From the UHGV virus genome UHGV-1592266: 17,097 bases of DNA; one strand, given 5' to 3'. This document shows positions 4,909 through 10,339 of this stretch, piece by piece (the first letter of the stretch is position 1; the number at the start of each line of letters is the position of its first letter). The stretch comes from a virus. The position numbers and the translations under genes were made by a program. The notes below the pieces were generated by a model, which worked only from the letters and a program-made list of their open reading frames with translations, was not told the origin of the DNA and did not search any database.

Positions 4909-5057
4909 TTCCTGCGATACCACGGAAGGTTGATAGCTGATTTCATCGCTTTATTTGCTTCAAGCCACATTTTTGAATCACCAATAAATCTGGCTATTAC
5001 TGCTTTGTTCTGTGCAGCACGAAGCATCTGGTGATTGATGGCTATTTCATTGCGCAT
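4905..5057 (-). CDS. kil: Kil-like small protein (50 aa); possible host-division inhibitor
   Basis: ATG at 5057 with GAGG RBS, overlapping the 3' end of cIII. The ARFIGDSKMW segment resembles the FIGDEKM motif I recall from lambda Kil. Position between cIII and the recombination genes fits kil. Confidence 0.4.
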   Translation of the reverse strand: MRNEIAINHQMLRAAQNKAVIARFIGDSKMWLEANKAMKSAINLPWYRRK

Positions 5058-5173
5058 AATAAGACCTCAACTCTTTTCCATCCGTCACGTAATTTACGGG
5101 TGATTCGTTCAAGTAAAGATTCATTTAATTGGAAGGCACCCATGCGAGCGCCTCCCGCGATTGCGTAAATCAT
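5042..5173 (-). CDS. cIII: CIII (protects CII from FtsH); 43 aa
   Basis: MIYAIAGGARMGAFQLNESLLERITRKLRDGWKR... contains the lambda CIII core ESLLERITRKLRDGWKR. ATG at 5173 with AAGGAA RBS. Confidence 0.7.
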   Translation of the reverse strand: MIYAIAGGARMGAFQLNESLLERITRKLRDGWKRVEVLLCAMK

Positions 5174-5197
5174 GGGTGGTTCCTTATGTTGGTTTTA

Positions 5198-6166
5198 TTA
5201 GTAGGTTATTTTTGTTGCGAATACTTCGCCTTTTACGATGGCTGTTATGATATTTTTAGCAACATCTTCTGATGCACCAACCTTGATAAGGTCAGCAAGT
5301 ATTTTGTTATTTACTTCTTTCCGGTGAGCTTTATCCTTTGCTCTACGCTCTTCTTCGTCCTTGATTCTTTTTTCTTCTGCTATTCTGGCTTGCTCTTTTG
5401 CTTCAGCCTCGCGCCGGATTCGTTCAGCCTCCTCCTGTGCTTTTCGGCGTTCTGCTTCAATTGCCGCCTGCTTTTCTCTTTCAGCTCGTTCTGCTGCCTC
5501 TTTTGCTTCGCGCTGTGCTCGTTGCTCGGCTTCAATGCGTTCACGCTCTGCACGTTCCGCTGCGGCCTTAGCTTCTGCTTCTCGCCTTGCTGCTGCTTCA
5601 ATTTCGGCTTTTGCCTTTGCTTCGGCTTCTGCTCTGGCTTTCTCTTCAGCTTCTCTTTTTAAGCGTTCTTCATGCTCTCGCTTTTCCTGCTCCGCTTTGA
5701 GTCTTGCCTCTTCTCTTTGGCGGTCAAATTCGCGATCCATCAAAATAGCTATTTCATGGTCAGACTCAATTTGCTTTGCGAGAGCTTCAGCTGCTGCCTT
5801 AGCTTCTTCTTCGGCTTTAATCCGCGCCTGTTCTTCCTCATAATCAGTAAGAGGCTGGCGCGCCTTGGCTTTCAGCTCATCAAGGCGATCACGCACTGTC
5901 TTGCGGTTGGCATCAATTAGCTTTGGAATTTCCTTCAGTTCAGCAACAAGGTCTTTGCCAAGACCATCGAGATATGTTTTCGTCTGCGCAACTTTATACG
6001 CCAGAGAAGCGATCTCCTTTCTGCCCTTTGCCGTTGTGATATCAGGCACAAAGGACATAACTTCACGTTCAACCTTTTGAAGGATTTCTTCAATCTGGTC
6101 GGCAGACTGAAATACAGTCATTGCATTTGCTTTTTCAATAACAACTAAATCTGTTACTTCACTCAT
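5198..6166 (-). CDS. coiled-coil protein with A/E/K/R-rich repeats (323 aa)
   Basis: ATG at 6166 with GGAGG RBS. The track's longer form has no RBS. The central ~180 aa are a low-complexity EAKAAAE/RAEAEAKAKAE coil. Confidence 0.55.
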   Translation of the reverse strand: MSEVTDLVVIEKANAMTVFQSADQIEEILQKVEREVMSFVPDITTAKGRKEIASLAYKVAQTKTYLDGLGKDLVAELKEIPKLIDANRKTVRDRLDELKAKARQPLTDYEEEQARIKAEEEAKAAAEALAKQIESDHEIAILMDREFDRQREEARLKAEQEKREHEERLKREAEEKARAEAEAKAKAEIEAAARREAEAKAAAERAERERIEAEQRAQREAKEAAERAEREKQAAIEAERRKAQEEAERIRREAEAKEQARIAEEKRIKDEEERRAKDKAHRKEVNNKILADLIKVGASEDVAKNIITAIVKGEVFATKITY

Positions 6167-6177
6167 ATATCCTCCGT

Positions 6178-6207
6178 CAAAAAAATTGCCCTCACACTGG
6201 AGGGCAA
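6178..6207 (-). terminator. rho-independent terminator hairpin directly upstream of the 323-aa gene
   Basis: Minus strand reads TTGCCCTCCAGTGTGAGGGCAA followed by TTTTTTT and then the GGAGG RBS. Confidence 0.5.
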
Positions 6208-6298
6208 AGAAGATTTCCAATAATCAGAACAAGTCGGCTCCTGTTTAGTTACGAGCGACATTGCTCACATAGCAGACTCGCAAATCTGCTATAGGTGC

Positions 6299-6460
6299 TT
6301 ATTCGCATCGCATGACAACATCAAATTTTTCGAGATTACTTTGTCGCAACAATCCCTCTTCTACGCGGTCAGCTTTTCTATAATTATCAAATTCGAAATG
6401 TTTAATTACTTCTTTCGTTTCTCGCTCTATAACTTCAACAATGTATTTCTTATTCATCAT
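6299..6460 (-). CDS. hypothetical small K/E-rich protein (53 aa)
   Basis: ATG-ATG at 6460 with GGGGGAAG RBS. ATGA overlap with the upstream gene. Confidence 0.4.
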   Translation of the reverse strand: MMNKKYIVEVIERETKEVIKHFEFDNYRKADRVEEGLLRQSNLEKFDVVMRCE

Positions 6461-6735
6461 TCTTCCCCCAGGGCCTTGCTGATGGCTGCCTTGGCTCGTT
6501 TGTATTCGGTTAACTCTCTGCACCCTTCGTCATGCTCGTAAAGGAAGACAAGCTCTTGCAGTGCTTCAAGCAAATCAGGAGCTGCTGCTATCAGTAGCGC
6601 ATCCTCCCTTTCATTTCTTGTTGCTGCTTCAATGTATGTGTCACCAATCGTCACACCATGGAACGTAGTCATCATCTCGTTGACGTTTCTAACCGTGTAC
6701 TTCCATTTACCAGGCGTACCCTTAAACTCTTTCAT
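6457..6735 (-). CDS. ead-region protein; paralog A with conserved AAPDLLEALQ...AISKALGEE C-terminus
   Basis: ATG at 6735 with AGAGGTGG RBS; the track start at 6741 is a GTG. Its C-terminal ~45 aa are homologous to the 7256-7507 product. Confidence 0.55.
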   Translation of the reverse strand: MKEFKGTPGKWKYTVRNVNEMMTTFHGVTIGDTYIEAATRNEREDALLIAAAPDLLEALQELVFLYEHDEGCRELTEYKRAKAAISKALGEE

Positions 6736-6740
6736 ATCCA

Positions 6741-6783
6741 CCTCTGTTGTTTATGCCAAAAATAAAGGCCGACTATGCGGCCT
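6741..6783 (-). repeat. copy 1 of a ~45-bp terminator+RBS direct repeat
   Basis: cacctctgttgtttatgccaaaaataaaggccgactatgcggcc is near-identical to 7511-7556. On the minus strand it reads hairpin GGCCGCATAGTCGGCC, then TTTATTTTTGG, then AGAGGTGG RBS. Confidence 0.7.
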
Positions 6784-7252
6784 AGTAGAATACCCAATTT
6801 TCTGTTTCTTGGTTGTGTCCAAAGTTATATTCAATATCTGGTGTTGATGTATCAATATTCTTCATCCCATCAACAAGAGTTGATACAACAGCCAAATCTT
6901 GTTTGATTCTCATCAAATGGTATTTCTTCCGGCGCAATAAACTTTCAATGGCAAGTTTCTTCGTCGGGAACGCAAAAGATCTTTCTGCATTTTTTGCTAC
7001 TTTCTTAATTGCATATCTATTTCTCCTTTGTTTCCATTCCTGTAACCACTGATTTGGTGCTGGTTTAAAATTAACAATCCAATGCGCAGGAACCAACCAT
7101 GCATAATGCTCTGTCTGATGAAAAGCTATATATTGAAGTGCGAATATTTTGATTCCATCTTCTTCAACTGTCGCTTGGAATCTCCAGAAAACAGGCATTC
7201 CATCATGTTCAGTTTCTGATTCAGGAAAAGGTACGCTCCATGATTTTGTCAT
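6782..7252 (-). CDS. hypothetical protein (156 aa); AT-rich (~37% GC) moron
   Basis: Clean ORF with ATG at 7252. Its GC content is clearly below the neighbouring genes. I recognise no motif. It sits between the two paralogs and the two repeat copies. Confidence 0.5.
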   Translation of the reverse strand: MTKSWSVPFPESETEHDGMPVFWRFQATVEEDGIKIFALQYIAFHQTEHYAWLVPAHWIVNFKPAPNQWLQEWKQRRNRYAIKKVAKNAERSFAFPTKKLAIESLLRRKKYHLMRIKQDLAVVSTLVDGMKNIDTSTPDIEYNFGHNQETENWVFY

Positions 7253-7255
7253 ATA

Positions 7256-7507
7256 TTACTCATCTCCAAGGGCTTTGCTGATTGCTGACTGTGCTTTCGA
7301 TACTTCATCAGGATAATGGTCATTCCAGTTTTGCTTGTATGCCTTGTTTAGCATCGCTTGCAGGGCTTCGAGCAAATCAGGAGCTGCCTCCATCAATCTC
7401 ACATCACCTCGATGGATGGTTGTATCGTCAAACGTGAAATAAACCCCATCATCGTTAAATCCAGCGCCAACAACATTCCATGGCCTTTTCATTCTTCCTA
7501 CTGTCAT
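7256..7507 (-). CDS. ead-region protein; paralog B (83 aa) with AAPDLLEALQ...AISKALGDE C-terminus
   Basis: ATG at 7507 with AGAGGTG RBS. C-terminal homology to the 6457-6735 product. Confidence 0.55.
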   Translation of the reverse strand: MTVGRMKRPWNVVGAGFNDDGVYFTFDDTTIHRGDVRLMEAAPDLLEALQAMLNKAYKQNWNDHYPDEVSKAQSAISKALGDE

Positions 7508-7510
7508 TAT

Positions 7511-7556
7511 TCACCTCTGTGTATTTATGCCAAAAATAAAGGCCGACTATGCGGCC
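7511..7556 (-). terminator. copy 2 of the terminator+RBS repeat; intrinsic terminator after sieB
   Basis: GGCCGCATAGTCGGCC hairpin plus TTTATTTTTGG on the minus strand, immediately after the SieB stop at 7562-7564. Confidence 0.6.
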
Positions 7557-7561
7557 TGAAA

Positions 7562-8011
7562 TTACTTAACCAATGATGCTGCATATTCGATAAGGTAAAG
7601 CTTTGGGGCCAGCCAAATTTTTAACCAAGTCATATTGGTTACTACACCAATAATAAAAATCCCCCACAGAGTCAAAACTACAACCAATGGCATGATAAGA
7701 AGATTAATATCACCTTTGCTATCCCAAACCATTGTCGGCCTGTATTTGGGATTTCCTTTCTCCCATGAATATCCTTCATCACCGATTTTACCTGTCTCAA
7801 CTCTTTGGCACTGCTTCTTCATAAACCAGAAAACCAGTGGGATTGTTAAAATGGCCATTAATGTTTTAATCAGACTGTCAACCATATTCCATAGCAGCAA
7901 CTGATGAACAACATCAGGAATCTGTGCCTGGCTGAATGAAACAGCCGCGTCTATTCCATTACTGGCTTTTTGCAGTAGTTCTACGAGAATCTTGTTTGCT
8001 TGTTCTTCCAT
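7562..8011 (-). CDS. sieB: SieB-like superinfection-exclusion membrane protein (~150 aa)
   Basis: Several hydrophobic segments and AT-rich composition. It lies between N/ral and cIII, where sieB sits in lambda and P22. ATG at 8011 with GAGG RBS is preferred over the track start at 8062. Confidence 0.45.
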   Translation of the reverse strand: MEEQANKILVELLQKASNGIDAAVSFSQAQIPDVVHQLLLWNMVDSLIKTLMAILTIPLVFWFMKKQCQRVETGKIGDEGYSWEKGNPKYRPTMVWDSKGDINLLIMPLVVVLTLWGIFIIGVVTNMTWLKIWLAPKLYLIEYAASLVK

Positions 8012-8019
8012 ATCTAACC

Positions 8020-8184
8020 TCAAATAAGTGGTTTGCTGCGAAAATAAATACGTTCCCACCAAGTTCCGTATCTATCTATCCAGTTACACCAATCATCGAC
8101 ATTCCATTTTGTTGTGTCGCATTTTGGCAACTGGCATGAATATCCACCTTCTTTGTAAAGTCGGCGTTTGACTTTCTTGAGCAT
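8020..8184 (-). CDS. hypothetical small Cys/Trp-rich protein (54 aa) in the ral position
   Basis: ATG at 8184 with GAGGTGA RBS, 9 nt after the N stop. Product is MLKKVKRRLYKEGGYSCQLPKCDTTKWNVDDWCNWIDRYGTWWERIYFRSKPLI. It is below the track's size cut-off and is not similar to lambda Ral as I recall it. Confidence 0.4.
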   Translation of the reverse strand: MLKKVKRRLYKEGGYSCQLPKCDTTKWNVDDWCNWIDRYGTWWERIYFRSKPLI

Positions 8185-8192
8185 GGCTCACC

Positions 8193-8525
8193 TCAATCGT
8201 AATAAGCTGGAATTGATTTTCCGCGTTGCTTCTGGCGGCCTGAGCAAGTCACACCCATTTCACTGCGTGGCTTGCTGTACCATGTGCGCTGATTCTTGCG
8301 CTCAATACGTTGCAGGTTGCTTTCAATCTGTTCGTGGTATTCAGCTAGCACCGTAAGGTCTATAGGATTCAGTGCGCTTTCTACTCGTGATTTCGGTTTG
8401 CGATTCAGCGAGAGAATAGGGCGGTTAACTGGTTTTGCGCTTACCCCAACCAACAGGGGATTTGCTGCTTTCCATTGAGCCTGTTTCTCTGCGCGACGTT
8501 CGCGGCGGCGTGTTTGTGCATCCAT
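8193..8525 (-). CDS. N: antitermination protein N (lambda-type)
   Basis: MDAQTRRRERRAEKQAQWKAANPLLVGVSAKPVNRPILSLNRKPKSRVESALNPIDLTVLAEYH... is essentially lambda N with a divergent C-terminal tail. AGGAGAA RBS. Confidence 0.9.
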   Translation of the reverse strand: MDAQTRRRERRAEKQAQWKAANPLLVGVSAKPVNRPILSLNRKPKSRVESALNPIDLTVLAEYHEQIESNLQRIERKNQRTWYSKPRSEMGVTCSGRQKQRGKSIPAYYD

Positions 8526-8793
8526 CTGGATTCTCCTGTCAGTTAGCTTTGGTGGTGTGGTGGCTGGTAGTCTAGCTCCAGCTTGTTGAGTCTCATTCGG
8601 AGGGGTATAACCGGCACCCCAGCGATTTTTCCATGCGACAACGTGCGCGTTATGGCGGCCTTATCGCCCGCGGCTCCCCATCTCGTCCACGCTATTGCTA
8701 GCGTTGGGAGCGCTTCACCGCTCAACAGTAGGTAAGCACTTGCCAGTGACTAGCTGGCTTCACCACACCCCAAAGCCTTCTGCTTTGAATGCT

Positions 8794-8823
8794 GCCCTTC
8801 TTCAGGGCTTAATTTTTAAGAGC
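8794..8823 (-). promoter_or_regulatory. nutL: nutL (boxB 8794-8808, boxA 8816-8823)
   Basis: Minus strand reads TGCTCTTAAAAATTAAGCCCTGAAGAAGGGC, i.e. lambda nutL with one substitution in boxA (TGCTCTTA instead of CGCTCTTA). Confidence 0.8.
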
Positions 8824-8863
8824 ATCACCTTCATGGTGGTTAGCGCGTCCTGCTGATGGCTTA

Positions 8864-8936
8864 AAATTACAAGAAAGATTGTATACTGTAAACAAGAAAT
8901 ATTGTAAAAAGAGGCGTGAAAAACAAACTCCGTTGT
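8864..8936 (-). promoter_or_regulatory. OL/PL: PL promoter with 434-type operators OL1 (8869-8882), OL2 (8892-8905), OL3 (8923-8936)
   Basis: Three 14-mers ACAAGAAAGATTGT, ACAAGAAATATTGT and ACAAACTCCGTTGT fit the 434 operator pattern ACAA-N6-TTGT at 23- and 31-bp spacing. Minus-strand TTTACA (-35) lies between OL2 and OL1, as TTGACA does at OR. Confidence 0.6.
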
Positions 8937-8963
8937 TTTTAAACGGAAAATAGTTTGTTTTTT
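8921..8963. terminator. hairpin terminator ending the cI operon (t_imm-like); possibly bidirectional
   Basis: AAACAAACT...(inner CCGTT/AACGG hairpin)...AGTTTGTTT with T-runs on both strands. It lies 25 nt after the stop of the cI-distal gene. Confidence 0.4.
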
Positions 8964-8986
8964 GGTTATCGAGATTGAGGTGGGGA

Positions 8987-10339
<1,353 letters not shown>

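Follow-up and report, generated by a model that had tools for sequence, protein, structure and literature searches.

A conserved junction element of the lambdoid pL operon, probably doubled by recombination that placed two accessory units in series in a P22-like prophage

The window, i.e. the whole 17,097-nucleotide stretch of the virus genome UHGV-1592266 that we analysed, is the early region of a lambdoid, P22-like prophage, and carries between positions 6,741 and 7,556 two genes bracketed by two copies of a short repeat. We conclude, with a probability of roughly 0.7, that this repeat is a conserved junction element of the lambdoid pL operon that was doubled here by ordinary recombination stacking two accessory units. 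According to this explanation, the element occurs twice because two units that each begin with it would have been placed in series, i.e. the element with an 83-aa and a 156-aa gene, and then the element with a 92-aa and a 53-aa gene. The case is one of routine phage mosaicism, in which the known lambdoid theme of boundary sequences and terminators is combined with two uncharacterised phage protein families. It represents no new kind of system and provides a countable example of accessory-gene shuffling in lambda-like prophages, with one short element, common to Stx phages, P22-like phages and lambda, marking the joints between units.

The features described here lie on the minus strand. Read in that direction, the gene for a cI-type repressor (9388-10020) is followed by nutL (approximately 8790..8826; boxA TGCTCTTAA, boxB GCCCTGAAGAAGGGC), which lies 5' of the gene for a lambda-type N (8193-8525; Pfam N36), by a DUF5484 gene (8020-8184) and by the gene for an Sf6 gp34-like small protein (7562..8011, in an ORF extending to 8062; 149 aa from MEEQANK, with two hydrophobic stretches; phrog_3054), which terminates just 5' of copy 2 of the element (7508..7557). 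Copy 2 comprises a hairpin (7557-7540), a T-run (7539-7531), the spacer GGCATAAATACACAGA and the RBS GAGGTGA, and leads into the 83-aa gene (7256..7507; 'paralog B'). The 156-aa gene (6782..7252) and copy 1 (6736..6783; hairpin at 6783-6766, T-run, spacer GGCATAAACAACAGA and RBS GAGGTGG) come next, and copy 1 leads into the 92-aa gene (6457..6735; 'paralog A') and the 53-aa gene (6299..6460; phrog_6949), which travels with the 92-aa gene and takes its stop codon from the GAATAA of the right-hand junction. The order ends with a spacer containing a tL2a-type terminator (6207-6186) and with an Sf6 gp33-like gene. The ORFs at 6457-6735 (92 aa), 6782-7252 (156 aa) and 7256-7507 (83 aa) match those given in a preliminary description of this DNA, which had also correctly placed the region within an N-antiterminated pL operon, as it has nutL and N, both of the lambda type. 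Moreover, according to the gene calls, the phage encodes Erf.

The two copies of the element are 774 bp apart, and each precedes one small gene of the same family. They contain a 34-nt exact direct repeat (6750-6783 and 7524-7557), with two matches vs 0.00 expected from 200 shuffles, so that the near-identical repeat noticed earlier is real. The copies are alike from the hairpin through the T-run, the spacer and the RBS to the start codon, with a mean column identity of 86% over 85 aligned columns. The minus-strand sequence of either copy is AGGCCGCATAGTCGGCCT, TTATTTTTGG and CATAAA(c/t)A(a/c)CAGAGGTG(g/a)AT(a)ATG, i.e. hairpin, T-run, spacer and RBS as had been proposed; more fully, an AGGCCG-CATAGT-CGGCCT hairpin is followed by TTATTTTT, by GGCATAAA(c/t)A(a/c)CAGA and by GAGGTG(g/a)AT(a)ATG. 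The geometry was likewise described correctly: the repeats bracket the 83-aa and 156-aa genes, copy 1 precedes the 92-aa gene, and the stop codon TAG of the 156-aa gene (6784-6782) overlaps the first one or two bases of the hairpin of copy 1.

The repeat is not special to this locus, but is a generic lambdoid junction element present in at least 218 phage records (51-nt query), including those of lambda, Sf6, VT2-Sakai and mEp234, with an identity of up to 41 nt in other phage records; it is absent from HK620. In its generic form, the element spans ~45 bp, in which a short GC-rich hairpin is followed by the T-run TTTATTTTT and by the spacer GGCATAAAyAACAGA. In lambda, the ral stop codon marks the beginning of the element, which opens the conserved ral-ea10 spacer; the gene preceding the element is an unrelated 83-aa gene (H0090) in VT2-Sakai and mEp234, and gene 34 in Sf6. 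In all four phages, the hairpin is followed by TTTATTTTTGGCATAAAyAACAGA and then by AATAAACACTGCACTG onward, which is the rest of the ral-ea10 spacer.

A scan of the IMG/VR contigs with the 21-mer core GGCCTTTATTTTTGGCATAAA gave at least 120 matching stretches, and the IMG/VR matches listed were pooled with the other loci collected to give 130 copies of the element. Among these 130 copies, the upstream genes fall into at least 11 unrelated clusters (Ral, 61; gp34-like, 17; Nmad5-like, 16; H0090-like, 10; a 107-aa protein, 8; L0079, the 933W homologue of the 156-aa protein, 4; and five rarer clusters), the gp34-like gene being the second commonest gene that ends at the element, and the downstream side shows at least seven continuations. 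Non-coding spacer follows approximately 88 of the 130 copies; elsewhere, a gene starts right after ACAGA, encoding either a member of the PF27050 family (23 copies) or a 44-aa, 65-aa, 108-aa or 237-aa protein, and L0079 begins a few bases further beyond ACAGA (9 of the 130 copies). Upstream and downstream partners occur in 30 distinct pairings. Moreover, conservation across 33 non-redundant contexts is 90-100% over the ~45-bp core and at background on both flanks. Because at least 11 unrelated upstream families are joined to at least seven downstream continuations, we conclude that the element is a recurrent mosaic junction across phages. The association of the repeat with cassette polymorphism that had been suspected is thus borne out. 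The preliminary description had set against its own proposal the prospect of a generic terminator of lambdoid left arms with no associated polymorphism; the element is indeed generic, but polymorphism at it is abundant.

The 34-nt identity in the window, and up to 41 nt elsewhere, would give collinear phage genomes enough homology for a crossover; stretches of 34-41 nt are usable by phage annealing proteins (cf. the arm lengths in recombineering). The likely agents would be host RecA or phage annealing proteins, which in this phage would be Erf, and crossovers at the element would exchange whatever flanks it on either side. Alternatively, the junctions may cluster by selection and not by homology, with the element being kept for a function at the RNA level, i.e. 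to end or stabilise the message from upstream or to frame the precursor of PreS, and with illegitimate joints being filtered. In favour of selection, the left joints are heterogeneous, with upstream stop codons lying 5 nt before the hairpin, at its edge or inside its loop, and a few right joints differ, with downstream units beginning after CAAT or CACTG instead of ACAGA (CAAT joined to ATGGGG, and CACTG joined to AATTATT). Moreover, the adjoining spacer encodes a functional sRNA, and the region is therefore under selection. By contrast, unrelated partners reuse the right breakpoint between ACAGA and GG, which is shared by at least four downstream families and found behind most of the 11 upstream families; identity is perfect in the core and the flanks are unalignable; and in the comparison of the window with contig L143, identity drops from 98.6% to 87% precisely at the element. 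We consider selection in place of homology possible but unlikely, and favour homologous exchange at the element. Since the positions of the junctions are imperfectly fixed, selection acting on the products of illegitimate recombination may account for some joints.

At their C-termini, several upstream proteins that are unrelated to one another carry K-A-A or E-A-A. The hairpin itself supplies the codons of this tail, and its loop holds the stop codon (AAG GCC GCA TAG or AAG GCT GCC TGA). Such tails are present in Ral, H0090, 147-aa, 55-aa, Nmad5-like and 107-aa proteins (loci L010, L011, L004, L005 and others). For annotation, this means that many 'hypothetical' genes at the element end in a borrowed K-A-A-stop. 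The window is not alone in carrying two copies, as in contig L017 two copies bracket a gp34-like gene after ral.

As described previously, the repeat looks like an intrinsic terminator followed by an RBS, and both copies were picked up by a terminator scan. The hairpin has a stem of 5-6 bp with five GC pairs and a loop of 6, and is followed by TTATTTTT, a T-run with 8 T in 9 bases. Its free energy is -7.7 kcal/mol here and -11 to -13.6 kcal/mol in the Ral-type variant; the hairpin of lambda itself is weak (-4.3 kcal/mol). The mEp234 record annotates the element as a rho-independent terminator; we know of no terminator mapped at the position of the element in lambda. The terminator scan predicted no further intrinsic terminator between N and copy 2, so that copy 2 may be where polymerase still lacking the N modification is first halted. 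Judged by these features of the DNA, the hairpin and U-run would act as a weak-to-moderate intrinsic terminator or as a 3'-end stabiliser, and N-modified RNA polymerase would read through the hairpin and T-run.

The two hairpin types keep their pairing, with one-sided G-U to G-C changes and extra inner pairs, and single variants often break a pair. Compensatory covariation between the hairpin types was considered and rejected, as a pair-by-pair check found one-sided changes only; because the stem changes are one-sided, support from covariation is weak. Similarly, a promoter-like TTGGCA-16-AATAAT in copy 2 (7533-7506, minus strand), which uses the conserved TTGGCA of the element, was rejected as a promoter, because its -10 overlaps the start codon of the 83-aa gene and shuffled sequence yields more such sites than the region itself. 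An Rfam search of 5000-9500 gave no match.

Both small proteins match phrog_1273 over their full length in a profile search (E 8e-24 and 5e-18), and PF27050 (Phage_P22_Y8K6) is on record for both products; our searches of Pfam, NCBIfam and PADLOC gave nothing for either protein. The two had been described as sharing a C-terminus and having unrelated N-termini. The shared C-terminus stands, with 47% identity in BLASTP over the C-terminal 51 aa only, but the N-termini are not unrelated, as phrog_1273 spans both proteins fully. At the nucleotide level, the two genes share one 49-nt stretch with 82% identity.

Two genes of the same family, each behind the same element and 774 bp apart, would be expected from a local tandem duplication of the element together with a small gene, followed by divergence and insertion of the 156-aa gene. 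However, the similarity between the paralogs amounts to the 47% over 51 aa and the single 49-nt stretch, yet each of them is 96-100% identical to genes of other phages in different contexts. Specifically, the 83-aa gene is 99% identical to genes of ST131 prophages and 96% identical to one in Sf101, and the 92-aa gene is identical in phage CurroJimenez_Bas106 except for a few sites near the 3' end. Moreover, the repeat is 100% identical between its copies, an identity inconsistent with divergence of the paralogs at their present site. Because each small gene has near-identical relatives elsewhere, these data argue against a local duplication, which we consider extremely improbable, and the segment duplication offered in the preliminary description does not hold.

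The origin of the tandem layout is instead indicated by phages that carry one or the other part of it. The 83-aa and 156-aa genes, with the same 3-nt spacing, occur as a pair in ST131 prophages and in other assemblies; in this type, the element and various upstream genes come before the pair, and a spacer and no second element comes after it. In CurroJimenez_Bas106, the 156-aa gene, the element, the 92-aa gene and the 53-aa gene lie in series behind the DUF5484 gene, without the 83-aa gene. The window is of the ST131-prophage type upstream of 7255 and, 3' of the 156-aa gene, identical to CurroJimenez to ~6480. Among 20 alleles of the 156-aa gene, that of the window differs at one site from the allele of CurroJimenez, and its only differences from the 83-aa-linked alleles closest to it are a single 5' site and the last few bases; overall, the alleles assort freely with left and right contexts.

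Because the window mixes both types and the 156-aa alleles assort freely, one crossover within the 156-aa gene (~7174-6792) suffices. An interval of 7252-6971, which came from reading the SNPs with two parents, was superseded when more alleles widened it. The tandem layout would thus be the product of one homologous crossover within the shared 156-aa gene, the parents being a phage with the element, the 83-aa gene and the 156-aa gene (as in the ST131 prophages) and a phage with the 156-aa gene, the element and the 92-aa gene (as in CurroJimenez); this crossover may have run in either direction. Such a crossover accounts for the tandem layout in place of the capture of a cassette between repeats that had been suggested. 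A relative with a single repeat and without the 83-aa/156-aa cassette, as had been envisaged, does exist in the form of contig L143, in which a gp34-like gene is followed by one element and the 92-aa gene; the window is 98.6% identical to L143 up to the end of the element (6783) and 87% identical beyond.

The tandem arrangement itself is real, since an exact-protein look-up led to two independent assemblies in which 6,252 bp are 100% identical. None of 5,426 complete E. coli genomes and none of the phage records contains this arrangement, and pattern scans of genome, viral and metagenome contigs returned none. In total, we conclude that the tandem form is rare.

The 156-aa gene is a homologue of 933W L0079 (phrog_1636, E 2.7e-112 over residues 1-156). 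Homologues of 156-163 aa, down to 55% identity, are found in Enterobacterales. None of the 20 alleles is disrupted, and of their variable sites 19 are synonymous and 11 non-synonymous; to judge from its sequence, the ORF is a real gene. A profile search of 1.84 billion representatives returned 87 relatives of the protein; the distant ones (E above 1e-10) are mostly phage proteins of ~130-155 aa, of which the ones that were scanned fall into phrog_13631 and phrog_25384. The AlphaFold model (65-sequence alignment; pLDDT 95.5) predicts a long beta-hairpin, a third strand, short helices and a 33-residue helix, and a BFVD structure search with the protein gave uncharacterised phage proteins only. 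Searches of Pfam, NCBIfam and PADLOC returned nothing, a sequence profile search of the PDB returned nothing below E 0.6, and a literature search found no paper mentioning L0079. We conclude that the 156-aa protein is a member of a phage-wide family of uncharacterised proteins.

The preliminary description regarded the 156-aa gene as a moron. If it were a classical moron, the gene would be AT-rich DNA inserted as an autonomous unit, carry a promoter and a terminator of its own, and benefit the host when expressed from the prophage, e.g. through exclusion or toxicity. Its GC content, previously estimated at ~37%, was measured as 36.7% vs a window mean of 45.6%; it is variably present between related phages, with L143 lacking the cassette; and in the 933W-type layout it sits in the ral-ea10 spacer between the similar AATAAACACTG and AATAAGCACTG. 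The GC contrast is modest, with 32.7% for the 53-aa gene, 39.3% for a 166-aa gene, and 44.8% and 47.7% for the two paralogs. Moreover, no promoter-like site was found 5' of 7252, the sole such site in 5000-9000 being the one that overlaps the start codon of the 83-aa gene, and shuffles gave more of them. Because the gene lacks its own promoter and its ATG follows the stop codon of the 83-aa gene by 3 nt, within the pL operon, it does not fit the classical definition of a moron. Also against a moron, the PADLOC, Pfam and NCBIfam searches gave no match, and structural and profile relatives occur in many unrelated phages; this spread through many phage groups fits a phage-lifecycle gene or an accessory early gene better than a host-benefit gene. 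In total, we consider an autonomous moron very unlikely and do not retain the label. In the 933W-type layout (933W, 2450-2640 of locus L003; L027, L091, L096 and others), L0079 lies within the ral-ea10 spacer with AATAAACACTGCACTG on the left and AATAAGCACTGTG on the right, and this short direct similarity looks like an insertion trace.

The element resembles several known systems in part. Boundary sequences ('bsq') were reportedly described for HK620 by Clark et al. in 2001 and for Sf6 by Casjens et al. in 2004. The Sf6 record annotates 'bsq4; boundary sequence' at 24156-24268, and the element lies 10 bp away at 24278-24318, outside the annotated coordinates. Like the boundary sequences, the element is short, conserved and non-coding, lies where genes meet in the N-cIII interval, and has differing flanking genes and a proposed role as homology for exchange; it is continuous with bsq4 in lambda, Sf6, VT2-Sakai and mEp234; unlike bsq4, the element here occurs twice and is split from the rest of the spacer by inserted genes. 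With the lambda pL terminators (tL2a-d and tL3, which are overridden by N) it shares a GC-rich hairpin and a T-run that lie past a stop codon, and the presence of nutL and N in its operon; in contrast to them, it is a putative terminator with a short hairpin (5-6 bp, -7.7 kcal/mol) and is not among the terminators annotated by homology in HK620 or Sf6. As in morons in the Juhala/Hendrix sense, the 156-aa gene has a lower GC content, is variably present between otherwise adjacent genes and is followed by a terminator-like hairpin; unlike morons, it is promoterless, starts 3 nt after the preceding stop codon, and belongs to a family that is phage-wide rather than host-derived. Finally, promoterless genes, hairpin elements as delimiters, one upstream promoter and combinatorial content recall integron cassette arrays, as a functional analogy only. 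Unlike in integrons, the element has no attC-like structure and exchange would occur by general homologous recombination; no integron-type recombinase gene is among the genes called in ~6 kb around the cassette.

More speculatively, the whole N-cIII interval of lambdoid phages might be a recombination-driven cassette array, in which the 45-bp element would serve as a portable homology arm, of sufficient length for phage annealing proteins, for stacking and swapping promoterless accessory genes, and in which the cargo might mainly be counter-defence or exclusion genes under diversifying selection. We regard this broader proposal as distinctly doubtful. If it were true, Ral and the Nmad5-like, gp34-like, L0079-like and internally hypervariable PF27050 proteins would be examples of the cargo. 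The variable early genes, i.e. those of the L0079-like and PF27050 families, are worth testing for counter-defence.

The PF27050 proteins are themselves mosaic. In a comparison of the window genes 6457-6735 and 7256-7507 (minus strand) with proteins P0038-P0153, a constant N-half extending to AAPDLLEALQ is followed by a hypervariable stretch of 20-40 aa and a constant end, AISKALGEE. In P0059, the N-half is that of the 92-aa gene and the C-half that of the 83-aa gene.

The lambda ral-ea10 spacer encodes the sRNA LPR1/PreS of ~88 nt, which ends at tL2a (bioRxiv 10.1101/2024.10.31.621285). The window is almost identical to lambda LPR1/PreS from 6266 to ~6180 on the minus strand, and this homologue (6180..6266) ends in the tL2a terminator hairpin (6207-6186). 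Directly 5' of it lies an 11-bp perfect hairpin (6268..6293, minus strand), which takes the position of the 14-bp hairpin in the ral-ea10 spacer of lambda, Sf6 and 933W and whose stem is unrelated in sequence to that of lambda; locus L099 has a third unrelated stem at the same spot 5' of PreS. That three unrelated stems occupy one position suggests that the hairpin serves as a structural signal, which perhaps sets the 5' end of PreS.

Two further observations concern the neighbourhood of N and cI. Just downstream of cI, at the position of lambda rex, an ORF at 8987-9463 (minus strand) has a signal-peptide-like N-terminus and is called as 134 aa in contigs L134 and L142; it is a candidate for a prophage-expressed gene. 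Finally, in mEp213 (locus L002, JQ182733; 3255-5012) two different N genes lie in series together with two copies of the junction element.
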